A DNA stretch of 64,000 nt from Octopus vulgaris (taxonomy: Eukaryota), in the NCBI GenBank assembly GCA_951406725.2, contig OX597815.1, positions 150,784,001 to 150,848,000 on the forward strand, given 5' to 3'. Position 1 is the stretch's first letter; each line of letters opens with the position of its first letter. This document shows, piece after piece, positions 2,741 to 54,695 of the stretch. The notes beneath the pieces are model-generated. The model was not told the origin of the DNA. It saw only the letters and a list, made by a program, of their open reading frames with translations, and ran no database searches. The translations under genes were made by a program, and so were the position numbers.

Positions 2741-3626
2741 AGTTTCGGTACGATAAGACGCAATAATATTCAGTGTCGTAGTTAATCAGTCATCCAAACT
2801 TGGGCATATCAAAAGGTCTTGAGGAAAAAAGAAGTAACACCAATAATTTAGTCCAAGAATAGAATCCCAAATTATCTCTCTCAAGATTTCTAAAGGAATC
2901 AAGTTTTAATTCTGATTTAGCTTCTCTGTGATCGCTACTTTTGTAAAGAGTCAATTCAACACTAAAATTTATTATATGCAAGCATTTATCACCAGACGTT
3001 TATCTCAGTAGATTAGAAAGACATTTCAACGTCATCGTTCTTATCTCACACAGATGCTATGAACAGACTTAATTGCTTAATTTCGCCTAATTAACAATTA
3101 GACACATCCATTAAAGACAGGATTGATTAGGACTGAGAAATACTGATAGTGACTGGAAATATTCAACGGAATTGGAAATCGCAGTAAAACGTTTAACTAT
3201 AAGGTTATAGTAAGAGACTGAAAGTATTTGAAATGACTGATAACGAATCAAAGAGAATAGAATTGACAGAATTTGTATGTGCCTATACAACTCTCTTTGC
3301 AGCACATATTATCAGGTAGAGAGAAGTCTAGTGCTTGCTTTCTCTAATAGCACAGTGGCATTAACGCACTGGGACTTCTACCAAGACAGACCTCAGTTTT
3401 GTAGGTGGAATTTGGTAGAGAGAACAATTCAAAAGCTTGTTGTTTATTTGTATGCAAGTACATGTGTGGGTGTGAGTGTGTATGTGTGAGTGTGTGTATG
3501 CGTGCATATATGTGCATATGTATATATATAAATATGCACATATATGCACGCACACACACACACACACACGCACACATACACACAAACACAAACACACACA
3601 TATATTTGCATACATATAAACATCAA

Positions 3627-4854: not shown

Positions 4855-4967
4855 ATATATGCAGAAATATATGCGACCAACTTTAGAACCTTTTGCAGAA
4901 ACAAAAACTCGTCCAACTACCAAAATCGTTAGACATGTGCTTTGGTCCAAGAATTTAACAAACATTT

Positions 4968-5150
4968 AACTGGTCATCACCACTCCATTTAGTGAAAAAG
5001 AAATCTGGTGATTATAGACCTACTGGAAACTATAGACGACTCAACGCTATTACCATTCCAGATAAGTATCCTATACCAAATATCCAGGATTTTGCAACTT
5101 CTCTGCATGGTTGCACTATATTCCCAAAAATAGATTTCATACAAGCATAC
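4968..5150 (+). pseudogene. Ty3/Gypsy reverse transcriptase fragment
   Basis: WSSPLHLVKKKSGDYRPTGNYRRLNAITIPDKYPIPNIQDF...IFPKIDFIQAY, the classic Gypsy RT N-terminal motifs; truncated at (TATG)n. Confidence 0.9.
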
Positions 5151-5164
5151 CTAGCTACCGTTAC

Positions 5165-5195
<31 letters not shown>

Positions 5196-6051
5196 TGTAT
5201 GTATGTATGTATGTATGTATGTATGTATGTATGTATGTATGTACGCATGTATGTATATATGCATGCATGTATGTATGCATACATTCAGATTTGTATTTTT
5301 TGCTTTATGTATGTATTCTCATGCATATAGTTGCCTATCTAGACATGCTCTGTGTTTGTATGTATGCATTTATGTAAGTATGTGTGTATGTATGAAGGAC
5401 CCCTACATTTCGTTAGAACTTTCTTCTAGTGGAAGGTAGACTCCCGTATAAATAAACCTAAGTATAGTTGGTTTCTCATCGTCTCAGCATTTGTTGTGCC
5501 GCTGATTGTGTTAAAGGCTTGGATCAGTGTTGTGTACCTTTATCCACTCAAAACCAGTTCCCTGACCTACTGTTTAGAAAATGCTCTTACTCCATTGCAA
5601 GTTACTTTCTACTATTTATTTATTTATACTCACGAACATCACCAATGAGATAACCATAACAGCTGAGACAAGTTGGAGGTGTTTGCTTGTGAGAAGATGC
5701 CGTAGACGGAACCGTTTGCAAGGCATCGGCTAATTTAGTCCCCGCTGTCCCGCAGAGGCGAAGAGCATAGACTTAAGGGCGATATGTTGAAACACTTGTG
5801 ATAGCTTTTGTCACCATCAAGAGCCATCTGGAGATATTAAAATGGTCACACAAATTGACAAGTTTAATTAATTCGACATGGTTTCTAAATTTTTATGTAT
5901 GTCCAATACTCTACGAAGACAGAGGAGTTGCAGAGACGTAAACTACGTTTTTGTCTCTTATTAATAAAAATAGGGGCAAAAACTGCCTCGTATTTTCCAG
6001 TTCTTGAACCGCAGGTCGAATGTAAATATATGATATATGAAATTTAAAATG

Positions 6052-6822
6052 TGGCGAGCTGGCAGAAACGTTAGCACATCATGCGAAATGCTTAGCGATA
6101 TTTCGTGTCTTTACGTTCTGAGTTCAAATTCGGCCGAAGTCGACTTTGACTTTCGGGGTCGATAAATTAAGTACCAGGTACGTACGGGGATCGATCTAAT
6201 TGACTGGCCCGCTCCCCAAAAATTTCGTTCAAATTCCGCCGAGGTCGACTTTGTCTTTCATCCTTTCGGGGTCGATTAAATAAGTACCAGTTATGCACTG
6301 AGGTCGATATAATCGACTTAATCCCTTTGTCTGTCCTTGTTTGTCCTCTCTGTGTTTATCTCCTTGTGGGTAGTAAAGAAATAGGCATTTCGTCTGTTTT
6401 TACTTTCTGAGTTCAAAATCCGCTGAGGTCGACTCTGCCTTCCATCCTTTCGGGTACGATGAATTAAGTACCAGTTGCGTACTAGGGGCTCGATCTAATC
6501 GAGTGGCCTTCTCCCCAAACATTTCGGGCCTTGTGCCTAGAGTAAAAAAGAATATTTTACTAACCAGAGGTGGCGAGCTGGCAGAAACGTTGTCACGCCG
6601 GGCGAAATGCGTAACCGTATGTTGTCTGCTGTTACGTTCTGAGTTCAAATTCCGCCGAGGTCAACTTTGCCTTTCATCCTTTCGGGGTCGATAAATTTAG
6701 TACCAGTTACGCACTGGGGTCGATATAAGCGACTTAATCCGTTTGTCTGTCCTTGTTGGTCCTCTGTGTGTTTAGCCCCTTGTGGGTAGTACAGAAGAAG
6801 GTATTTCGTAGCAGAAAAGAAT
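6052..6822 (+). mobile_element. Cluster of tandem/nested SINE family 1 modules
   Basis: Four core modules and two tRNA-like heads. Confidence 0.9.
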
Positions 6823-8858: not shown

Positions 8859-8989
8859 CTTCTAGTGTACATTACTGTTAGCTCAGAATACAGCAGGAGT
8901 TAATCGGGGTTCGAGAATTTTGAGAATTTGAAAAATATTTTTACACAAATTGTTGTACCCTTGGGTAATTCTGGGAATATTCTCTGCTA

Positions 8990-9046
<57 letters not shown>

Positions 9047-9116
9047 TGTGTCTGTGTGTCTGTGTATGTGTGTATGTGTATATATATCTGTATATATATA
9101 TGTGTATGCATATATA

Positions 9117-9527
9117 TCTGACTCTTTCCACCGCGAGGGAATTCTTCCCTCGTCTAGATATTGCGTAAATCGCTCAGCGAGGATTTTCCAGAGCTGCTCT
9201 CTGTCTGACTTTAGCACGTCCGATGTTATACCGTCTTTCCCTGGCGCCTTTCCGTTTTTCGTCAAGCTAATGGCTCTTTCAGCCTCACTGACAAGGATAG
9301 GTGGCACAAGGGCGATAGAGAGGATCTAAAGAACTACCGACCCATATGTCTGCTGTTTCACGAGTACAAGCTGTTCACGAAGATAATTCTGAACAGGTTA
9401 TCACATCATCTCGACGTACAAGAACTACAGCACGATGGACCATATATTTACTCTAACACAACTGCTTGAGCGAGCGAATGAGTACAAGCTGCCTCTTTGC
9501 GTTGCGTTTGTAGACTATGAGAAGGCC
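9117..9527. mobile_element. RTE-clade LINE RT fragment with 5' inversion
   Basis: Minus 9117-9307 encodes PPILVSE...[12 protein letters not shown]...IPSRWKES; plus 9308-9527 encodes [16 protein letters not shown]...STMDHIFTLTQLLERANEYKLPLCVAFVDYEKA. Confidence 0.9.
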
Positions 9528-10409: not shown

Positions 10410-10840
10410 TCAATTCTATTTCCTGACACCTAGGGCAGAGAAACACATTGTATACAATGGTAGGCCATTACAATAAATACACCAGATTGTTCATTTACAG
10501 AGTCATGTCATAGAGAAAAGGGTGATGAAAGACAGAAAGAAAAAGGAAAAAATAAAAAATGAATAAGTAAACAAAGAAAATAAAGAGGAAAGAAAGAAAG
10601 AAAATCCACAGCGACAGTGCCCTTCAGTTCATGTGACGTACATGTTAAGACAATCTTTGGCACTTCCTGCATGGATGGTAAGCCAGGGATTATTCTTAAA
10701 TAATATTCAGTTCCTTTTTTAATCATTCCAAGTGCTCCTATAATCACTGGCATTGTAACCGTCTTGGGATGCCACATCTTTTCGATTTCGATGAGTAAAT
10801 CTTTATATTTTCTGAGCTCATCAAATTCTTTTCCCGCCAT
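10410..10840 (-). mobile_element. R4/Dong-like LINE 3' end, second subfamily
   Basis: KEFDELRKYKDLLIEIEKMW...PVIIGALG; different 3' UTR, echoed at 12496-12600. Confidence 0.8.
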
Positions 10841-10849
10841 ATATTATTA

Positions 10850-10919
<70 letters not shown>

Positions 10920-11748
10920 CTTTTTATCACAAGTTTTGTTGGAGCACCTGGAGTATTGCATGCGTAGCGGGCTTACTTACTAACTGCAGGCTACGGTGCC
11001 ATACTATTCGTTCTTTTCAGCTGTCTAATACTTTCCTGATTATTCTGGCCGTGCCAAGGAGGCAAATCTTTTGTACCTGTTCTACTGGGCACTCTGTTCC
11101 AATTTCTTTTATATTCCACTTGATACCTTCTCATACTGTTCCCAAGGACCCAGCAATAATTGGCATTATTTTCCCCTTCTTCATTTTCCATAGCCGGGAT
11201 ATGAGATTTGTATCTGTCTATCTTTTCACCTTCCTTCTTCGCTATTCGTGTGTCAAAGGGGCATGCAACGTCAACTGTATAGCATATATGGTGCACCTTG
11301 TCCACTACCACTAGATCCGGTCTGTTATGCTCTAGCACCTGATCTGTTTGGATCGGGAAATCCCAGGGGATTATCATAGTCTCCGATTTCGCCACTCTCT
11401 GCGTCTGTGCTCATACAATGTCTTGTTTCTCTCTAACCCTTACTGCTTTCACAGTTTCCAATGTAGCACTTTCGTTACCTGGTCGTGTCGCCACAGCTTG
11501 TAATGGTTTCGGGCAAGTCTAGAACATTCGGTCGTGATATGGACAATGTTTCATCCACTCTATTGCAGATGCGGCACAGCGGAGACACTTGCTCATTCTT
11601 AATTGACTGTGTAGTCCCTTCTTTCGTAATCCTTCTTCACGTCCTTTTTGTACATCTTCCTTTGTTTTTCTTTTTTTTCTACTTTCAATACTCCCTCGAT
11701 CCTAGCTGTCATTAACATGGTTTCCTTACTGTGGGCTAGGTATCTCAT
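10920..11748 (-). mobile_element. R4/Dong-like LINE 3' portion (zinc knuckle plus RLE), third subfamily, frameshifted
   Basis: SPLCRICNRVDET...RHDQV..LHWKL, then WDFPIQTDQVLEHNRPDLVVVDK...VDVACPFD. Confidence 0.85.
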
Positions 11749-11764
11749 TATTATTATTTTATTA

Positions 11765-11795
<31 letters not shown>

Positions 11796-11796
11796 A

Positions 11797-11832
<36 letters not shown>

Positions 11833-11833
11833 A

Positions 11834-12339
11834 TTCACTAGTTATATTTTTATAGTGTGCTTTCACTTCATTACCGAACACAGCTCTGTGTGCCTTGGAT
11901 ACGTGCTGTGTTTTGTTTTGATGCTCTGATGGTTACTGTATTGAAAGTGTTTTGCGTAGGATGTGGGCAGTGCCCAGGAAGCCAATTCTCTGTATGTTAT
12001 ATGTGTTTGTAAGTCCTGGTGTCTTGGTTATGTATTTGTCTGAATATTTTTTAATCATGCCTAATGCACCTACTATGATAGGAATTGTTTCTGTTTTTAG
12101 ATTCCACATTCGAGTTACCTCTATTTCCAGGTCTTTGTATTTTGAAAGTTTCTCCATTTCTTTTAGAGTCACGTTGTCATCTTCTGGTATTGATACATCA
12201 ATTAGAAAGCATTTTGCTTCTTCATGATCTCTGACAACTATATCTGGTTTGTTGGCTTTAATTTCTCTATCTGTGTGTATTGGCATATCCCAGAGAATGG
12301 TTGCTTCCTCGTTTTCTGTGACCTTTTCTGGTGTGTGCC

Positions 12340-12340
<1 letters not shown>
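11834..12340 (-). mobile_element. R4/Dong-like LINE 3' end with an intact RLE domain frame
   Basis: ORF 11933-12286: MPIHTDREIKANKPDIVVRD...FLIDVSIPEDDN..KEMEKLSKYKDL; PD..D..K RLE signature. Confidence 0.9.
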
Positions 12341-12423
<83 letters not shown>

Positions 12424-12447
12424 TATTATTATTATTACTATTATTAC

Positions 12448-12497
<50 letters not shown>

Positions 12498-12643
12498 CTT
12501 CTTTCTTAAAATTTTCTTCTATTTCTCGCAGAGTGTTTTCCGTACACCTAGGGCAGAGAAGCTCATTGTATGCATTCCCAGATTACACACACAAATTCAC
12601 ATTATTATTAATTAGTAGTACTAGTAGTAGTAGTAGTAGTAGC

Positions 12644-14309: not shown

Positions 14310-14660
14310 TTAATAAATAAAACATATGCATATATACATACATATATGTACGTACCTACATCTATATGTATATATACATGCATATATGGGTACAGGACAC
14401 CAAAAAAACGTCGAACACAATGAGAAACGAAAACATAAACACAAAACCAAGAAAATGGACATTTTTCTTAAACAACGAAAAGATAGAGTACAAGACATGC
14501 AACACAAGGAAAATTCCCCTTCTTCAGCCGCCTCTGTTTCATCTACTCCGCGGTTCGAAGGTAAAGGCGAGACACGACTTCATGGAAACAGTCCTTCCCG
14601 CAAAAGCAGATTAAATAAAATTTGCGATTTTTTTACGGAGGGTTAAAAATGGTAACATAT
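14310..14660 (-). mobile_element. Repeat family B (paralog of 54415-54885), probable PLE 3' end carrying a permuted HHR motif
   Basis: About 340 bp reverse-complement homology to 54545-54885; flanked by TA-rich tracts. Confidence 0.7.
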
Positions 14661-16700: not shown

Positions 16701-16864
16701 AAAAGTTCATAGTAAACACATAAGCGTGCCTGTTCATACGTATACATGCGCGCTCGCGCAACCACGTGCGTACGCATACATCACTATGAAAACGTACACA
16801 TCTTCACTCGCATTTTTTGCCAAATGTATATTCATAGATATACAAACTCATATATTATGTATAT

Positions 16865-17253
16865 GCCGTTACGTTGTGAGTTCATATTCCGCCGAGGTCG
16901 ACTTTGCCATTCATTATTTCGAGATCGATAAAATAAGTACCAGTTACGCACTAGGGTCGATATAATCGACTTAATCCGCTTGTCTCTCCTTGTTTTTACC
17001 TTCTGTGTTTAGCCCCTTGTGGGTAGTAAAGAAATAGGAATTTCGTCTGCCGTTACGTTCTGAGTTCAAATTCCGCCGAGGTCGACTTTGCCTATTATCC
17101 TTTCGGGGTCGATTAAATATGTACCAGTTACGCACTGGAGTCGAGGTAATCGACTTAATCCTTTTGTCTGTCCTTGTTTGTCCTCTCTGTGTGTAGCCCC
17201 TTGTGGGGACTAAAGAAATAGGCATTTCGTCTGTCTTTACGTTCTGAATTCAA
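16865..17253 (+). mobile_element. SINE family 1, tandem core and tail modules
   Basis: Two and a half repeats of an approximately 185 bp module. Confidence 0.85.
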
Positions 17254-18405
17254 AACCCGGAACCATGTGGTTGGTAAGCAAGCTACTAACCACACAGCCA
17301 CTCCTACGCCTATAGAAATTTGATTGCTTTCATAATGTGTTATCTAATTTCCCTGAGCTCAGTTTTAAAATGTTATGTTTGTGTTGCCTTCGATTTGAGC
17401 TTGAGATCAAGGACGTATTTCTTACGAAGGTTTTCGGCAGGATCATCTGCATGTCTACTTGAACTCCTTAAAAAGACAAAAATTCTGTATAGCTGCTATC
17501 ATTTATCTCGTTTACTCTACACCTCGATATCTTCTTAACAACGAAAGGAAGTTTTAAGATGTTCAATGGGAATGAATTAGCACGAACTGATAACAGGATA
17601 GTAAATAATAATCTATAACACTTCTCTAGCTGTTGTATGATATATTCAATAGAGAAAAGCTTTTTGTGTGACCTTCTCAGGCGGCTGCCACATGGGCTTA
17701 ATACGTCAACCGTTAATCAATCAATTTGTACGTTAAGGAATAGCGTTCTGAGCCACATCCTTACATTAGAAATAAACTAGTTTTCCTTTGTTTTTAAACT
17801 ATTTTTAGTTTGTTTTCTTCAACGGCAACAACAGACATAATTCACGAGACTATTGCATGCATTATACACTTTTGAAAATCTATTATGGAACCGGTAAAAT
17901 TTATTCAACAAATGAGATCCAGAAATTCTCAGTATAGAAAACACTTTGTAGCGCTCAAATGATTCGAACTTGGACTCCAACGTCTTTATGAGGGACCAAT
18001 TCCGTGGGAGTAAAGAGTGGCTATAAGAGGAATCAAGGTGAGCAGATATGGACGCAGTTATGCGGTTATATAACGGATTGGGTTTTATATACAATAATGT
18101 GTGTGTGTGGATGTGTGTGTATGAGTGTGGGTGTGTGTGTGTAAACAAAAAGAAAGTAAAGACTGAAGTTTATCGAACGATTTAGGTATAAACATATAGA
18201 TATTAATATTAAGACATCAACCGTACACCGAGTACAAAACGACAGACAAAATCAAAGGGGAACAAGTAAGATGTTATAAGTCCAACTGTTGTTTCTGCGG
18301 TCTTGGAGACCCATCATAATGTTGGTAGATGTAGTTCCTCAAAATATGCAGTCAGTTATGGAATCAAATAATCATTGACCTTCCATCATCAAGATTGAAA
18401 CAGAA

Positions 18406-19217: not shown

Positions 19218-19611
19218 ATTCTACTCTAGGCACAAGGCCCGAAATTTTGGGGGAGGGGGCCATTCGATTAGATTGACCCCAGTACACAACTGGTACTTAA
19301 TTAATCGAGCCTGAAAGGATAAAAGGCAAAGTCGACCTCGGCGGAATTTAAACCCAGAATGTAAAGACAGACGAAATACCTATTTCTTTACTGCCCACAA
19401 GAGGCTAAACACAGAGGGGACAAACAAGGACAGACAAACGGATTAAGCCGATTATATCGACCCCAGTGCGTAACTGGGACTTATTTAATCGACCCCGAAA
19501 GGATGAAAGGCAAAGTCGAATTCGGCGGAATTTGAACTCAGAACGTATCGGCAGACGAAATACGGCTACGCATTTCTCCCGGCGTGCTGACGTTTCTGCC
19601 AGCTCGCTGCC
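19218..19611 (-). mobile_element. SINE family 1, full-length dimeric copy
   Basis: Head near 19611, two cores, 3' end gtgcctagagtagaa. Confidence 0.9.
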
Positions 19612-20182
19612 TCAGTGCGTATTCAAAACAAAGAATACGCCTTAAAATATTTATTTATCACATCTTTAGAGGAAATTCAATGCGATTAAAACTTGAGTAC
19701 TTAAACTTTTTTATACTGTTCTTCTTTACGATACGCTCTCCTAGTTATTCTTCAAACGATGGTGTTACTTTTCTGGAGCAGCTATTCACAGTATTGTTTA
19801 TTGGTTGGGATAGGTATATATACATTTTTAGAGAAGCTCCTATGTAATTTATTTCCATGTTTGTTGGTGTATTACCTGTTAGCCTTCTAACTTATGGGAC
19901 CAAATATTATGTTCATAAATACCACCTTAATGTGCTTGGCATATAATCTTTTAGATGCATCTCCAGGTGTCCCATCATACATCGAAAACTCGCGTTGGCA
20001 ACGTTATGGGCAATAAAGGTCATTAAGAATAGATTATTTAATTATAATATCAAAATGTTGTAAGTAAATAATTTCACGTTGTATTCTTCTGTGTTATCCC
20101 TCTTTTTGTAAAACTTTCATAATTATGTATTCGACTAAAAACTATTTAGAAATTCTTCAGTTTAACGTTAAATTGTTTTTGT

Positions 20183-25879: not shown

Positions 25880-26824
25880 ATGGTACGATTATAATTGTAA
25901 TGGTACGATTATAATTGTAACGGCAATGATGGCCGTCTCCCCACGAGCCAATCAAAGCTAAAAAATGATAACATTATCGTAGCACCAAAATGTTTTTGGA
26001 AACTAAAAGGAAAACTAAATCAGTATACCAAATCGCTTGTCCTATGGTTAATCTGGAAGCGCGTCCCCCAGGGAAGAGCCAGCCTGGGATCGAAAGTCAT
26101 CAACTGGCACAAACTCTTCTCCGAATACGGACATGGATGGTCACTTGAACGGGAAATCCCCCAACTCGAGCCCTCCAAGTTCACCACCACAACCACCACA
26201 GAAAGAAAAATGTAAACGGAACAAATGGACCCGAGAAGAGTATAAAGAAGTAATATACGCTTATTACTATGCATTAGGTAGGCCATCTCAAGAGAGACAC
26301 ACCGCAAACTCTTACAGTATATAGAGAACACGGAATCAAGACAGTAGGCCCTATTTGGACGAGAACAAATTAGCAAATGTGAGGAGGGATATCCTTAGAA
26401 ATAACAGACTCACAGACAGTGAAATAAGCGCGATCAAGCACGCAACGGAAAATGACATAAATATAAGACACAAAGGAAGTGAAGAATCAGATGAACAGTA
26501 TAGCCCGCCACGAGGCTTAATTGAAAGACTGCCATCTGACCAAAGTACGCAAAGGCCTGAAGATACAAGAAATTCTATTGTACCTGTTAAAGATAGCCAG
26601 GAAAACGAAAAAACAACAGTAACTGAAGATCTCGCATTTGCTGAAGAACACAGAGAGTCTATAGCAGAAATGAGGCAGAAAATCCTGAATACGCTTGAAG
26701 TTGTAAGACATACAAGTATGAATGATAGAGAACCACTTCATAAACTCTCAAATACAAACCAAAATAAAAAACAAATCCAAATTGGCAACTATGTAACAAA
26801 TGAAATAATACGAGAATTAAAACA

Positions 26825-26825
<1 letters not shown>
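25880..26825 (+). mobile_element. 5' end / N-terminus of an R4/Dong-like LINE, 3'-truncated
   Basis: RNKWTREEYKEVIYAYY...DENKLANVRRDILRNNRLTDSEI, typical of the R4-clade N-terminus; starts after (TAA)n; one in-frame stop at 26322-26324. Confidence 0.7.
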
Positions 26826-27040
<215 letters not shown>

Positions 27041-28671
27041 TAATAGTAGTTTCTACTATAGGCGCGAGGTCTGAAATTTAGGTAAAGTGGATAGTCAATT
27101 ACATTCACTGGAAATTAATTTTTCTGCACCTATAAGGATCAAAATCAAAGTGAACTTGTGCTGGAGTTGAACTCAGGATGTATATTGTAAAGTATTCTGT
27201 TTGGTGCAGCATTGCGTTTTTACTTCTGAATAACTGCAAATAAATTTGGCGGGAATTATGTTAACTTTCTACACAAACTTGGTAACTGGCTGAAGTTATT
27301 CAAATTTTATCTGAATAAACTTTATCTTGTCTAACTATTTTCAGCAAAATTTCGAAATGGTTAATAAAAATGATATACATAATATATCTTTTTTTTTTGC
27401 TTTCCAACATAAAAACAATAGAAATAGGCGTAATAATGTATCAACTGACCCATAATGGGGCCAGACCCAAACATAACTAACAGTATAACATCAAAATTGC
27501 TGTGCTTTCGACTTAAAGATTGGAATAACTTACAAGTTAAAGTAGACAAAAATCTAAGAATTGTACGCTAATCCAATTGTTAGAAATCTTCCAATACAAT
27601 GGAAGCCAAGGTTTAGTCTGTAAAATTTGTAGTGACGTAGAAGCTTTTTGCTTACTAATAAATGGTAAGGTGTGGAATTAGATTATTTCAAAAGGCATTT
27701 AACATAGAAGTAGCATATTTCTGCTGGAGAAATTGTTAGAAGCAGAATTATTCAACCATTAAAAGTACTTTTTCAGGAAATTTTATATTAAGAGAGAACA
27801 TAAGTGAAGCCATTTAAAAGGCTTCAAAGAGAAATGAAGTAAAAACTCTTACAGACAATATGTTACTTGTAATACAAGAAAACGCTTCAATGAACTCTGA
27901 GAAATATAGCCATGACAATATGGCTGAATATCTACCTTTGCCAGCGGATTGATGTAGTAAATAGTATGCATTTAAGCTTTTAGAATCAATAAATACACCA
28001 AATAGCAGCATTCACTCATTCAGAAATTATGCCGGAAATTCAGAAATCAAGATATTATACATTTTGGTAATGAAAGCACTGGTGGTTTTGTTAGTAAAAT
28101 GCCTTCCTTGTATTTTAAATGCATGAAAACAACCGTCGAAAACTAGTCGACACATTTTAGAGGAATTTTAAAATTTGAGTGTTTCAAGGCAGAATCAATT
28201 AAGAAATGTGACCAAAGATTTCAAGGATTGAAAGTCAGATAAAACAAAATGGTGATGTTTATTTCAGAAGCGCTTCTGTAATTGCTTATATTTTACTTCA
28301 TCCACTCATTGGATCGGGGCGATGCTGGGGCATCGCCTTGAAGAATTTTGGTAAATGAATTGAACACTGTACTTAAATTTTTTTTAAGCCTGATATCTAT
28401 TCTAGCGGTCTCTTTTACCGAAACGCTATGTTACAGGGATGTAAACAGACCAACACCTGTTGTCAAGACGGGCAAATACAGACACAAAGAGGAACACACA
28501 AATATTCGAATAACTTGTATTTGACATGTGATCTTGCAATCTAGATCCATATGTGTATATGTATATATGTGTGTATGTGTATATATGCATATATATGCAC
28601 GTGTATGTGTGTATGTGTATATATCTATATATATATATATGTGCGTGTATGTGTGTGTGCGTATGTGTATA

Positions 28672-37963: not shown

Positions 37964-38020
<57 letters not shown>

Positions 38021-38415
38021 CGTTTGTCCCTCCTCTCTCTCTCTCTCTCTCCTCTCTCTTCCTTTGCTTCTCTTTCTTTTCTTTTCCCTCTTCTCTGTCA
38101 CGTGACTGTTGGCCGAAATCTGCCTTTCAGCTCCTGACCTCGTCCTGTTAACATCGCTGTTTTCGTCCGCCGCTATAAAGGCTTTTTCCATTGCGCCAGA
38201 GAAAAATTTGTTTGCTTGTTATCAGTCGTAAGACACTGTTGTTTTCACCGTTAATGCTTCTGTATTTCATGTTTCTGTATTCCATTATTGTTTTTTGTTT
38301 TTTTATATCTGTCCCTTTTGCTGTCCTGGTGTTCGTATGCATTCGATCCTTCTTCCAGGAAATCTACGCTTCCAGCTTAGTTTTTCTAATGCTCGTTGCT
38401 TAGTTTTTCTTGGAG

Positions 38416-38507
38416 GGCTGGCCGTGATCTAGTAATCTCAAGATTAATCAGCCGAAATTACTACGATGATCCGGTTCTTGACTGAGGACTGAGGGTTTCG
38501 AATGTCC
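38416..38507 (+). ncRNA. Non-circularly permuted hammerhead-like motif, intact core
   Basis: GGCUG..UAGUAA-UC-UCAAGA..CAGCC-GAAA-UUACUA..UCUUGA-CUGAGGA; three perfect helices of 5-6 bp; within repeat ~38095-38580 that ends in (TA)n. Confidence 0.75.
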
Positions 38508-38576
38508 TGTCCGTGTTTATTGTATCGTCTTCTAAGAGTTATACGTTCTTGTCCATGTTGTATTTTTCTACATACC

Positions 38577-38621
<45 letters not shown>

Positions 38622-42015: not shown

Positions 42016-42228
42016 GTGAAATAGAAAGATGAATAATCTTGTAGTAGATTAATCAAAAGTTTAACCGATACCTTAGTAGCAAAAATCACAGCAGTAAACA
42101 GCACGGTTGGAGGTACAACCATATGGTGTTGCAACCGTGCGTTGGTGCGGATAATTGAAATTAAAACATTATTGGTGAATTGAAGAAATGGAGCTGAACG
42201 CAGATTGAACAGAAATCGTTTTATTTCA

Positions 42229-42308
42229 TTCTACACGTGTTTCGAAAGGCACAAATGACCAAATTCCGATTGAATAATGGGACCATATTGTGTCTTTCTC
42301 TTCAGGAA
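42229..42308 (-). ncRNA. Minimal type I hammerhead ribozyme in the PLE pLTR
   Basis: UUC-CUGAAGA-GAAAGACACAA...UUGUGCCUUUC-GAAA-C(ACGU)G-UA-GAA, followed by AAUAAA. Confidence 0.9.
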
Positions 42309-42902
42309 GAAAATAGGAAATCCGTTGGAAAAACAAAAACAGAACAGAGGCGGAGCAAAAACAAATCGAACTATGCTCCTAAGAGCCCATGGCGAAACTG
42401 TTTATCAGTGTATGTTGAGAACCGGTGGCTGAAGAATTTAACGGGTCAGGCATCGGTCAATCATGTGGGTGAGGGTGTGTAGGTGTTCTTTGTGACCGAG
42501 AATAAAGTTCTGACTATTTAAGGAATATTGGATGTTTTATAAGGGGCGAGAAAAAATCTACTTAGAGACGTGTGTGTGTGTATACTGTTCTATATATGTG
42601 TGTGTTGGCGTAGGGGTAGAAAACATTTTTTGTGTACGTGTGTGCGTTTGATCGTTCGGCTGTCAGTGGCTACTGCCGTCAGAACCGTTGGGCGGCAGAA
42701 AAAAAATATATATATATTATGTTTTATGTGTGTGTGTGTTCATCTAAGCCTGCCTTGTCAAGGAAACCCCCCGCTGTGAAAAAACCAAGCCCCGTTTGTC
42801 TTACAGGAGTAATTCCCCTTGCAGTGGTTAATCGTAGATATCTTAAAGGCTATTTCAGAATTTGTTACCAAGGGCTATGGGTGCCGGTATTATTTATAAA
42901 CG

Positions 42903-44060
42903 CTATTTAAAAGCCAGATAAGTGTAGCGCCGCCAATGGGGGCATCGAAAAGCCGACTGTAAAAGCCCATTTACCATCCGGCCTCTGGCAAACAAAATAT
43001 GGAAGAGTTCGGAGACACAAAGGTTGCACTGCCTTCTGCCCCTATCAAATGGGAGGGCCACCGACAAAATTGACCATTCCAGCCTGTAGCTTAAGTTCGT
43101 ATCCTTCAGTCGCCATATTAGCTTACTGAGTCCCGTGGTCTGGCGCTTGTTCATGTCCCGAAAAGTTGCGTAATGGTTGGAGACACGCAAAGACAATCTT
43201 GAGGATGAGGCCCCTACATAAGTGAAGACATCTGAGTCCGTGTAAACCTTGCATTTGTAGACGGCGTTTTTGATCTTGGAGTTCGCCGACGTGAATCTTA
43301 TTCTGCTAGGATTAGTTTCTGAAATTAGAACTGCGTTCCTGTCACTATATTCGTTCCGAGACCTGCAGCCGCTTACTACTCTATTTTCCACTACGTCACT
43401 ATTAACTATAGGAATAACCCCTGATTCTCCACTATCTATCAGAGTGCTGTCATTGCTACTGCCCGTGGTGCTGCTATTGCGGGAAATGATGCTGGGGATG
43501 CTATTGGGGCTCTCTACCCTACTCCCATTGTTACCGTCAACCACAACACCCCTATTTATAACTATACCCCTAGTGGGTACTCCCTGGCTGGAGCTGAGAT
43601 TATGTGTCACTGTACTGGCTCTCATATCATTATTACTACTATAACTATTCCTACTGAGCATTAAACCGGGAGCGGAAGAGGCTGTGCCTCCGGAAAAAGG
43701 TGATAGGGTCTTAGTAAGTAGCCTATTATTATGGGAGGCGATTATCTGGGCGAGGTTTTTAGTGTTGGAGAAAGCTATCCTAACTTTATGCGAGTTAACC
43801 GTGGAGTAATATTTGGAATTTCTGGGGAAGTTATTGGCGATGGCTTGTCTAAACATGAGGGGGAGGTTAGTTCTAATCTGCTTACCAAAGGGGATTACAA
43901 ACCATATATGCTTATTCCTATCAGTGTGATGGGTCGGGACGCCAGCTCTCGCGTTCGGGTGGGTGATTCTCGGATGAACAACGGGTCTTGGGTTAGTGTA
44001 AGACCTCCCGGACCGATAATTATCCTTGTTCGCTAAATTAAATGCGGGAGCGACTACCCC
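42903..44060 (-). CDS. PLE ORF C-terminal part: RT thumb/linker plus GIY-YIG endonuclease (Naiad-like)
   Basis: Frame stays open from the inversion junction past the listed start at 43856; HIWFVIPFGK..TN, SHNNRLL, AVYKC...YVG...R..NH...WSIL...CNLC.SE...N...CPH. Confidence 0.9.
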   Translation of the reverse strand, partial: GVVAPAFNLANKDNYRSGRSYTNPRPVVHPRITHPNARAGVPTHHTDRNKHIWFVIPFGKQIRTNLPLMFRQAIANNFPRNSKYYSTVNSHKVRIAFSNTKNLAQIIASHNNRLLTKTLSPFSGGTASSAPGLMLSRNSYSSNNDMRASTVTHNLSSSQGVPTRGIVINRGVVVDGNNGSRVESPNSIPSIISRNSSTTGSSNDSTLIDSGESGVIPIVNSDVVENRVVSGCRSRNEYSDRNAVLISETNPSRIRFTSANSKIKNAVYKCKVYTDSDVFTYVGASSSRLSLRVSNHYATFRDMNKRQTTGLSKLIWRLKDTNLSYRLEWSILSVALPFDRGRRQCNLCVSELFHILFARGRMVNGLLQSAFRCPHWRRYTYLAFK

Positions 44061-44066
44061 GGGGTA

Positions 44067-44381
44067 GTAGGGGCCTCATCCTCAAGATTGTCTTTGCGTG
44101 TCTCCAACCATTACGCAACTTTTCGGGACATGAACAAGCGCCAGACCACGGGACTCAGTAAGCTAATATGGCGACTGAAGGATACGAACTTAAGCTACAG
44201 GCTGGAATGGTCAATTTTGTCGGTGGCCCTCCCATTTGATAGGGGCAGAAGGCAGTGCAACCTTTGTGTCTCCGAACTCTTCCATATTTTGTTTGCCAGA
44301 GGCCGGATGGTAAATGGGCTTTTACAGTCGGCTTTTCGATGCCCCCATTGGCGGCGCTACACTTATCTGGCTTTTAAATAG
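44067..44381 (+). pseudogene. Inverted duplicate of the GIY-YIG C-terminal ~100 codons
   Basis: Translation identical to the end of the minus-strand ORF. Confidence 0.9.
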
Positions 44382-44974
44382 CGTTTATAAATAATACCGG
44401 CACCCATAGCCCTTGGTAACAAATTCTGAAATAGCCTTTAAGATATCTACGATTAGCCACTGCAAGGGGAATTACTCCTGTAAGACAAACGGGGCTTGGT
44501 TTTTTCACAGCGGGGGGTTTCCTTGACAAGGCAGGCTTAGATGAACACACACACACATAAAACATAATATATATATTTTTTTTTCTGCCACCCAACGGTT
44601 CTGACGGCAGTAGCCACTGACAGCCGAACGATCAAACGCACACACGTACACAAAAAATGTTTTCTACCCCTACGCCAACACACACATATATAGAACAGTA
44701 TACACACACACACGTCTCTAAGTAGATTTTTTCTCGCCCCTTATAAAACATCCAATATTCCTTAAATAGTCAGAACTTTATTCTCGGTCACAAAGAACAC
44801 CTACACACCCTCACCCACATGATTTACCGATGCCTGACCCGTTAAATTCTTCAGCCACCGGTTCTCAACATACACTGATAAACAGTTTCGCCATGGGCTC
44901 TTAGGAGCATAGTTCGATTTGTTTTTGCTCCGCCTCTGTTCTGTTTTTGTTTTTCCAACGGATTTCCTATTTTC

Positions 44975-45054
44975 TTCCTGAAGAGAAAGACACAATATGG
45001 TCCCATTATTCAATCGGAATTTGGTAATTTGTGCCTTTCGAAACACGTGTAGAA
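44975..45054 (+). ncRNA. Minimal type I hammerhead ribozyme (inverted arm copy)
   Basis: Same motif as 42229-42308 on the opposite strand. Confidence 0.9.
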
Positions 45055-45112
45055 TGAAATAAAACGATTTCTGTTCAATCTGCGTTCAGCTCCATTTCTT
45101 CAATTCACCAAT

Positions 45113-45199
<87 letters not shown>

Positions 45200-48387: not shown

Positions 48388-48900
48388 TGTTGTTGGCCTT
48401 GCACAGCTTCTAACGCTGGAGATGTACTACGGTGTCAGCTGTTCACTACCAGTGAACTAAGGTAGCACCTCTCATTTTTCGAGCACCTTCCGGAATATTC
48501 GAGCGGTTCCAAGCAGTGCTGCTTACTGCAAGTGCTCCACCCTTATTGCAGACCCTATTTGTTCCACGTACTTCTCGAGGGTTTTGCTCACTGTTCCCAG
48601 GGCTCCGGCAATTATTGGTACTACTACTACCGTTTTCATTGACCACAACTGCTTAACTTCCCAAGCTAACCTGTCATATCTCTCAACTTTTCTTTCTTCC
48701 TTATCGCATATCTTGTTGTTAGCTGGGCATGCTATATCTATGATCCAGCATAGTTTGTTTTCTTTCCCAATTAACACTATATCCGACTTCCTATTCTCAA
48801 TCTCATGGTCGCATTGAATCATAAAATCCCATAGGATCTTTGCATTTCTATTTTCGACGATGCCTTCAGGTTTGTGGTCGTACTAATCTTTTGCTCTATC
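48388..48900 (-). mobile_element. R4/Dong-like LINE 3' end (RLE domain)
   Basis: ILWDFMIQCDHEIENRKSDIVLI...IIDIACP...KEERKVERY; flanked by (TAA)n. Confidence 0.9.
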
Positions 48901-52435: not shown

Positions 52436-53183
52436 TTCTTTTCTAGTCCAGACACAAGGCCCGAAATTTTGGGGGAGGGAACCAGTCGACTAGATCGACT
52501 CCAGTACGCAACAGGTTCTTAATTTATCGACCGCGAAAGGATGAAAGGCAAAGTCTACCTCAGCGGAATTTGAACTCAGAACGTAAAAACAGACGAAATA
52601 CCTATTTCTTTACTACCCGCAAGGGGCTAAACACAGAGAGAACAAACAAGAACAGACTAACGGATTAAGTCGATTATTTCGACCCCAGTGCGTAACTGGT
52701 GCTTAATTTATTGACCCCGAAAGGATGAAATGCAAAGTCGACTTCGGCGGAATTTGAACTCAGAACGCAGCGGCGGACGAAATACCGGTAAGCATTTCAC
52801 CCGGCGTACTAACGTTTCAGCTAGCTCACCGCCTTGTCAAACTCATTGTATTCTTTTCTACTCTGGACACAAGGCCCGAAATTTTGAAGGAGGGGTAAGT
52901 TGATTAGATCGACCCCTGTATGCAACGGGTACTTAATTTATCGACCCGACCTCGGCGGAATTTGAACTCAGAACATAAAGACAGACGAAATACCTATTTC
53001 TTTACTACACACAGAGGGGACAAACAAGGACAGATACACGGATTAAGTCGATTGCATCGACCCCAGTGCGTAACTGGCTTTTATTCAAGCAACCCCGAAA
53101 GAATGAAAGGCAAAGTCGACCTCGGCGGAATTTGAACTCAGAACGTAACGGCAGACGAAATACAGCTACGCGTTTCGCCCGGC
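52436..53183 (-). mobile_element. Two tandem dimeric SINE family 1 copies
   Basis: Repeated core and tail modules. Confidence 0.9.
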
Positions 53184-54600: not shown

Positions 54601-54695
54601 AGGAAGAAAAGTTTCTATCGAAGATACGTCTCGCCTTCACCTTCGAAACGTAGAGTAGATGAAACCATGGCGACTGAAGAAGGTGTTTTTTTCCT
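54601..54695 (+). ncRNA. Non-circularly permuted hammerhead-like motif, intact core (family B)
   Basis: GAAG..UACG-UC-UCGCC..CUUC-GAAA-CGUA..GGCGA-CUGAAGA; the paralog at 14507-14600 (-) shows compensatory changes. Confidence 0.75.

Follow-up and report, generated by a model that had tools for sequence, protein, structure and literature searches.

A hammerhead ribozyme motif with a split core block near the 3' end of a putative non-autonomous Penelope-like repeat of Octopus vulgaris

The window analyzed here, a 64-kb stretch of microsatellite-rich DNA from Octopus vulgaris (64,000 nucleotides; contig OX597815.1, positions 150,784,001 to 150,848,000), holds at positions 38416 to 38488 the strands of a hammerhead ribozyme in an unfamiliar order, and the question that this locus raises is whether these strands form an active ribozyme and, if so, with what topology and in what kind of element. 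Re-reading of the letters of 38416-38488 found every hammerhead strand that a first-pass annotation of the window had named, as follows.

38416..38420, plus strand: IIa, stem II strand on the 5' side (G10.1 = 38416), separated from the CUGAnGA core
38421..38429, plus strand: P4a, no linker after IIa; counterpart of a strand of the 'I' helix of types SGC and CSG (see below)
38430..38435, plus strand: IIIb; 38429-31 are kink-turn positions 3n, 2n and 1n of older subfamilies
38436..38437, plus strand: U16.1 and C17; predicted cut 3' of C38437 (after unit nt 713)
38438..38443, plus strand: Ia, strand of stem I 3' of the predicted cut
38444..38448, plus strand: 5-nt linker from Ia to IIb
38449..38453, plus strand: IIb, 3' strand of stem II (C11.1 = 38453)
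38454..38457, plus strand: core G12, A13, A14 and A15.1 (GAAA)
38458..38463, plus strand: IIIa
38464..38467, plus strand: hinge from stem III to P4; in a kink-turn the bulge would be 38462-64, and 1b, 2b and 3b would be 38465-67
38468..38475, plus strand: P4b, no linker before Ib
38476..38481, plus strand: Ib, strand of stem I 5' of the core
38482..38488, plus strand: core C3 to A9, CUGAnGA (CUGAGGA here), the final ribozyme element
38489..38511, plus strand: 3' flank, no in-register stem II partner; can fold back over the core in the window copy, which has N7 = G

Stems I (38438-43/38476-81), II (38416-20/38449-53) and III (38430-35/38458-63) are perfect and in exact register with the core, as the first-pass annotation had read them (6/6, 5/5 and 6/6 Watson-Crick pairs, respectively), and P4 consists of 8 pairs with U38425 bulged. 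The core contains C3-A9 (CUGAnGA), G12-A15.1 (GAAA) and U16.1-H17, with all three stems in core register (read by eye in the Naiad consensi discussed below). The ribozyme ends at 38488, and 38489-38507 is flank.

Eckert 2023 (PMC10085705) describes the hammerhead as three blocks, C, G and S, none of them interrupted, which gives six orders, and reports that SGC and CSG RNAs from environmental sequence cleave in vitro, type CSG having previously been backed by only two metagenomic sequences. The non-circular permutations of that study, a kind that the annotation had noted as reported from screens, come from metatranscriptomes and metagenomes. The octopus strand order corresponds to none of the circular types I, II or III (orders CGS, GSC or SCG round a three-way junction), the block order being S, G, C instead; Rfam showed no match in the window at the gathering score, nor in 38050-38600 at E<=10. 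The order S, G, C is that of type SGC, as is a helix tying together the distal sides of stems I and II, here P4 (in which 86.5% of the cells pair and both sides of 2 pairs have changed), but a stem II strand directly 3' of CUGAnGA, as in an uninterrupted block C, is lacking. Judged by its sequence, the motif therefore passes as a hammerhead in core and stems and is a member of neither types I-III nor type SGC as defined. Since IIa is tied at its 3' end to the 5' end of Ib by P4, at the site of the 'I' helix, the motif amounts to the SGC/CSG ring in closed form, with an opening between A9 and G10.1. What is new is the split block C, which the six-permutation scheme of Eckert 2023 (PMC10085705) assumes to be impossible; as it breaks this assumption, descriptor searches have been blind to a whole set of topologies. 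The novelty of topology and host, left by the annotation to a literature check, was held against papers mostly outside the subscription journals and the main text of Eckert 2023, among which neither a split block C nor a non-circular hammerhead from animal genomes or Naiads turned up.

The motif lies in a 5'-truncated solo copy of a repeat, termed family A:

38016..38579, plus strand: family A copy, unit nt 292-856, with (TA)n on either side

Family A has a unit of 856 nt with no plausible ORF (60 loci; longest stop-free frame 100 aa, of low complexity) and often forms head-to-tail arrays in which the first copy is 5'-truncated; its single fixed 3' end is followed by the next unit or by (TA)n. 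The predicted cut, after unit nt 713, is 143 nt from this 3' end. A first look gave 2166 candidates, and the 40 copies scored were 99-100% identical, i.e., family A is young. A genome-wide search with this strand order, which the annotation had proposed, was performed with the core pattern of lineage A and gave 2991 + 3006 matches (about 6,000) in the 2.8-Gb assembly vs. 0 + 0 for the reversed control; it also uncovered several older subfamilies of family A. A laxer descriptor (stem I >=4, stem III >=3, both cores, same strand order) was run over 400 kb of genome, sampled as 40 stretches of 10 kb at even spacing, and hit 4 times (2 hits of family B, 2 chance-like) vs. 7 times in 20 block shuffles of the same 400 kb. 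Pairs of GAAA and CUGAAGA at window positions 42394 (plus), 44889 (minus) and 37743 (minus) did not fit the descriptor.

Two other families, B (1886 candidates in the genome) and D (1237 candidates), share the layout of family A in the octopus genome and have unrelated stem sequences, and two copies of family B are found in the window.

54603..54680, plus strand: family B copy, same layout with other stems; one change in IIa
14521..14597, minus strand: diverged family B copy, same layout; stem III compensated, A15.1 changed to C

The S, G, C layout was also seen in other diverged families or copies, at L035 (minus strand, near 2223), L113 (minus strand, near 3050), L243 and L180.

The head-to-tail units of family A, with one ribozyme each and no coding ORF, are those of a non-LTR retrozyme or a non-autonomous Penelope-like element (PLE), and by analogy with such systems its architecture is that of non-autonomous PLEs or retrozymes (PMC8557442, PMC7229834, bioRxiv 10.64898/2026.07.22.740005). 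It has neither the type I hammerhead of non-LTR retrozymes, so that type I descriptors cannot find its split-core ribozyme, nor the ORF of a Naiad PLE (N-terminal GIY-YIG, CxC, DKA, C-terminal RT). It shares the habits of Naiads, i.e., a (TA)n target, partial tandems and 5' truncation; these are also typical of other PLE clades and hence not diagnostic. In runs whose RNA status is a guess, contigs covered the ribozyme in 4/4 cases and one contig joined unit end to unit start, strand, ends and circles being invisible in contigs. Read depth at the ribozyme is confounded by sister subfamilies and was left out of account.

The chain break between A9 and stem II, which is what sets the motif apart from type SGC, was upheld in a set of 70 distinct hits (drawn from 236 sources and enriched by our own searches): a 5' partner of IIb with at least 5 bp was found in 55/70, as compared to an in-register 3' partner with at least 3 bp in 2/70 and, as a control, a 3' partner anywhere with at least 5 bp in 15/70. 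Stem II is paired in each family with different letters, GGCUG/CAGCC in family A, GAAGG/CCUUC in B and GACACC/GGUGUC in D, and the placement of IIa at the 5' end likewise held across families with unrelated stem sequences and in 10 Naiad consensi (by eye). These observations bear on the possibility that the motif is an ordinary type SGC hammerhead, with stem II formed by the strand 3' of CUGAnGA in a shifted register and the 5' pairing incidental. In the window 38489-92 can indeed pair with 38448-51, as can the purine run after the core of family B with IIb, two bases out of register; however, families A, B and D have a mean of 0.0-0.2 bp of 3' pairing in register, the 3' flank differs between subfamilies of A without compensation, and 5' pairing is perfect with different letters in three families as well as in most Naiads of the split layout, which makes this alternative highly improbable. 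A stem II from the 3' flank was rejected on the 3' pairing counts and the uncompensated flank changes; a GAAG beside stem III in family B was also rejected as IIa, the in-register partner lying further 5'.

Covariation was assessed in an alignment of lineage A (25 of 40 fetched copies that retained the 5' part plus 2 young copies, giving 24 distinct rows), in which 88.8% of cells were paired. The covariation expected of the annotated pairings was present at the level of cells, 10 of which had changed on both sides, a number reached by 0/500 shuffles, and was weak at the level of pairs, where 3 pairs had changed on both sides and 64/500 shuffles reached that. The compensatory changes included U-A to C-G in stem III and G-C to A-U in P4; stems I and II are invariant in lineage A, partly through selection on them. 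We consider the comparison of letters across families to be the stronger evidence for the pairings. Among families N7 varies (A, U, G, C) and the other core bases are constant, the searches having selected on the core.

The window copy itself has N7 = G vs. A in 43/44 of the young copies read. This rare base strengthens a hairpin of the core with the 3' flank (window 38480-38511); as the hairpin hides the core, the window copy may be less active than the common copy. A nested-only fold of the window copy has a z of -0.29, and its minimum free energy structure buries IIa, Ib and the core in other helices. As a nested model can not score two pseudoknotted stems, this z says little on the fold; the alternative helices predicted are nevertheless a serious warning that the RNA may misfold.

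An RNA cut after C17 would force an RT that starts from the fixed 3' end to halt at the cut, and the 5' ends of inserts were therefore compared with its position. Among the first 100 matches listed with (TA)5 within 30 nt of IIb, counted by eye, 27 distinct 5' ends abut a microsatellite, 24 of them at +1 to +11 after the cut (five at +1) and 3 at -1 to -19 (binomial p 3e-8; for +1 to +5 only, 11 vs. 3, p 6e-6). Over the whole genome, counted on the minus strand so that no locus enters twice, 848 ends fell in +11 to -19 vs. 105 in -2 to -32, roughly a 20-fold step per base, although the patterns behind these counts are not equally stringent, the position of a junction may be off by 1-2 nt, and (TA)n junctions at +6 to +11 may be drawn by the AT-rich linker. 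These 5' ends just 3' of the predicted cut suggest cleavage in vivo and would tie ribozyme cleavage to the insertion mechanism of PLEs. Many inserts derive from solo copies; many copies longer than cut-to-end inserts are also present, so part of the template must be uncut or circular.

A pile-up of 5' ends could also arise through structure or microhomology at a conserved but non-catalytic fold, e.g., an RT-loading or RT-stalling signal or the relic of a ribozyme. The poor nested stability of the window copy would be in line with such a fold, as would the observation that Naiads spread well without a recognized hammerhead (Craig 2021, PMC8557442). Yet the core bases, the UH triplet and the exact register are kept across five phyla while the stems turn over, and an RT moving 3' to 5' meets the 3' side of the fold, whereas the step coincides with the predicted phosphate, on its 5' side. 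We thus regard a non-catalytic fold as unlikely and an active hammerhead as the better reading.

How such a hammerhead would close its core depends on the loop between stem III and P4. In older subfamilies of A this loop reads as a standard kink-turn, with a 3-nt bulge followed by G.A (24/24 rows), A.G (22/24 rows) and U.G (22/24 rows), and 3n is G in 22/24 rows, a state said to allow kink-turn folding in ions alone (PMC4382518); the kink-turn columns had not been selected on. A 3-nt bulge followed by G.A and A.G is found in 22/24 rows of lineage A and in 15/22 distinct copies of family D. The window copy differs, having A.U at 2b.2n and U.C at 3b.3n, with U at 2n vs. G in 22/24 rows, as the youngest A subfamily, to which it belongs, has lost the 2n G. 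A.U at 2b.2n also occurs in Kt-23, but here a U.C stands beside it, so that a kink in the window subfamily is doubtful. The purine-rich loop of families B and C between stem III and P4 resembles a loop E motif rather than a kink-turn.

One possibility is an active, compact, pseudoknotted monomer, in which P4, bent back at its kinked junction with stem III, runs along the II-core-III stack and one copy completes its own core. The canonical kink-turn register in older A subfamilies and in 15/22 distinct copies of family D agrees with such a monomer, as do the derivation of many inserts from solo copies and a P4 with linkers long enough in Bfor and family B; single SGC and CSG constructs, moreover, cleaved during transcription (PMC10085705). 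The length of P4 is the difficulty. A crude estimate of the reach of P4 back to the tops of its own stems I and II, made with P4 fully antiparallel, was ample in family B and Bfor, borderline in older A subfamilies and D, and short in the window copy (32/42 Å) and in the Naiads Plae (32/42), EuTe (44/53) and Amil (38/62). The estimate takes 2.8 Å for each step of a helix and 6.5 Å for each free base. Furthermore, the included angle of a kink-turn is 50 degrees, so that P4 can not run fully antiparallel, which also counts against the monomer. By symmetry, two antiparallel copies that dock their tails on each other's loop should fit any rod length. PLE hammerheads have been reported to act as dimers in tandem repeats. 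We would therefore somewhat favor the strand-swapped pair, consider the monomer rather less likely and any other fold improbable, and both may occur in different families.

The relation to Naiads rests on a second set of sequences. Craig 2021 (PMC8557442) describes Naiads as elements that target (TA)n and have no canonical hammerhead, notes that some of them hold core strings ('HHR_core', 'HHR_half_core') that fit no descriptor and for which no fitting stems were found, and leaves the role of the hammerhead in PLEs unclear. We read parts 1, 9, 12, 19, 24 and 27 of the 59 parts of its File S5, together with searches for four core heptamers, which would miss a motif broken by a line end; all parses were made by eye. 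In these consensi the split layout was found in 10/54, from five phyla, with stems II, III and P4 paired by different letters: Bfor (ctenophore), 3_Chem, 2_Movir, Amil, Aacu and Anas (cnidarians), Plae (acanthocephalan), EuTe (clam shrimp), and Obim and Ovul (octopuses). Stem I is only 2 bp in Bfor, and Aacu has two mismatches; one further consensus from a cephalopod (probably Esco) has the layout, its IIa being weak. In six nematode Naiads (Nbra-1, -2, -3 and three more) block C is intact and the blocks run C, S, G, i.e., type CSG, with the 'I' helix; on their own these six would make a strong covariation set for that type. Two spider consensi have the order S, G, C with stem II unclear, and reading by eye gave no parse for one spider hit or for those from Darwinula. 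No such motif was seen by eye in most of the consensi, including all bivalve, hemichordate and fish ones examined as well as 1_Chem, 2_Chem, Dcar, Ppla, Tama and Omin. The 3' ends of Naiad-1_Chem and Naiad-2_Chem in File S5 share two G+C-rich, apparently structured motifs that do not resemble a hammerhead and possibly represent another ribozyme class.

Family D provides the link to Naiads within the octopus. At locus L231, Naiad-type RT motifs are followed by a 3' untranslated stretch, a family D motif and (TA)n, and family D matches the 3' end of the consensi Naiad_Obim and Naiad_Ovul, i.e., the motif is at the 3' end of a Naiad RT in the genome as well as in both consensi. Family A resembles the Naiads 2_Movir and Amil in linker and helix ends (by eye), and its Naiad origin appears likely but unproven.

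We also searched for an element that would mobilize family A. No autonomous partner was found among the PLE neighbors, the Naiad RT matches and the upstream stretches of family D. The Naiad RT motif has 10 genome matches; the 5 examined are all decayed and 1/5 ends in the motif (family D, L231), neither an intact Naiad frame nor a Naiad ORF linked to family A was found (the longest open frame of Naiad-like RT matches is 292 aa), and cephalopod Naiads have been described as long inactive (PMC8557442). Six more diverged Naiad-like RT places had no sense-strand split-core motif within about 2 kb, and nine upstream extensions of family D had no RT motif by exact match. A PLE with C-terminal EN beside a family A copy (L121; intact relatives with 775-aa frames) was rejected as partner, as it has no sequence in common with family A and the two BLAST matches that linked them are separate insertions. 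A 753-aa PLE with C-terminal EN was rejected as carrier: a family-B-type motif stands behind a microsatellite at L236, yet 0/6 other copies have one. Neither of the two intact PLE families with C-terminal EN thus carries the motif. The first, found at L170, L173, L188 and elsewhere, is young, has intact 775-aa frames of RT and C-terminal GIY-YIG, and ends in (TA)n; no CUGAnGA core was seen in its 3' part, and it is a candidate for mobilization in trans. The second (L236, L244-L249), also young with intact 753-aa frames, has the same last five bases before (TA)n as family A, which is a weak hint of shared end recognition.

Other elements in the window were noted as well. At 42162-45121 there is a PLE remnant in an inverted-repeat arrangement, with a C-terminal GIY-YIG-like frame at 42903-44075 (minus strand, 390 aa, no Pfam hit). 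Read by eye, its terminal repeat contains a type I hammerhead of canonical form, in which stem II is long and stem III is palindromic and lacks a loop (minus strand, about 42223-42314; mirrored near 44978, plus strand), so that both hammerhead styles occur in one window. A common interspersed repeat of 250-300 bp (85-90% identity, SINE-like) is found at 1242-1486, 6227-6809, 16864-17259, 19264-19613 and 52484-52840, and fragments that by eye resemble LTR-type and LINE-type retrotransposon proteins, broken by microsatellites, at 4959-5330, 8987-9325, 10508-12505, 26325-27074 and 48523-48882.

Overall, we judge it quite probable that the motif is an active hammerhead of a new topology, a circular permutation of the closed, non-circular SGC/CSG form with its opening between A9 and G10.1, and that it lies close to the 3' end (pseudo-LTR) of a retroelement that is Penelope-like, non-autonomous and probably derived from Naiads. 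We infer each chemical step of the mechanism that follows from the genomic pattern, which is what was observed. P4 and stem III would form a bent rod with Ia, linker and IIb in its loop, while IIa and Ib-CUGAnGA would be free tails; on docking of the tails to the loop, stems I and II would be built and P4 would cap their far ends. Linkers of 0-3 nt would favor two antiparallel, strand-swapped copies over a single copy that folds on itself by a kink, and tandem arrays would supply both copies in cis. Cleavage after C17, once per unit, would release 856-nt monomers from transcripts that are multimeric or read through, and a host ligase may circularize these monomers, by analogy with other retrozymes for which this has been reported (PMC7229834). 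A Penelope-type RT-endonuclease acting in trans may then nick (TA)n and prime at the AU-rich junction of units, which lies 143 nt 3' of the cut. If its template has been cut, the RT would run off at the cut and yield the many inserts of 130-143 nt, and circles or uncut multimers would yield tandem arrays with a truncated first unit.

A bolder reading, which we offer tentatively, is that the split-core form is the overlooked ribozyme of a large part of the Naiad clade across animals and an obligate antiparallel, strand-swapped dimer bent by a kink-turn, such that element RNA would be cut only where two terminal repeats are present, nematode Naiads keeping the unsplit CSG of the same closed topology. 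If true, the nematode CSG and the split forms would represent a natural series in which tandem repeats re-open a ribozyme inside its catalytic core, and there would be a concrete answer to why Naiads, dominant in many invertebrate genomes, seemed to lack the ribozyme of other PLEs. As its core would be completed only when two free tails dock, such a ribozyme could also be used as an RNA switch with two inputs.

Compared to known systems, the octopus motif shares with the hammerheads of PLE terminal repeats its location and a proposed need for two copies; those dimerize via a short palindromic stem III, whereas the octopus motif has a stable stem III and a swap would use stems I and II. With metazoan non-LTR retrozymes, which are probably mobilized by PLEs (PMC7229834; bioRxiv 10.64898/2026.07.22.740005), family A shares non-coding tandem repeats with one hammerhead per unit; theirs is of type I in units of ~170-400 nt, and that of family A is a non-circular split core in units of 856 nt. 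Naiads (PMC8557442) share with family A (TA)n targeting, partial tandems and 5' truncation, and ten consensi share the split layout, but family A has no ORF and no proven Naiad parent, and is young. The closest relatives in topology are types SGC and CSG of Eckert 2023 (PMC10085705), which have in common with the octopus motif the cyclic block order S, G, C, the full core, a short linker between stems I and II, and a fourth helix, the counterpart of P4, that joins the other sides of these two stems. Unlike in type SGC, block C of the octopus motif is split, with IIa at the 5' end rather than 3' of CUGAnGA, and unlike in both types the two strands of P4 run into stem III. Finally, the types of that article come from metatranscriptomes and metagenomes, with no genome of a known organism save one GCS case, whereas the octopus motif is chromosomal and brings non-circular permutations from environmental sequence into animal chromosomes, in thousands of copies.
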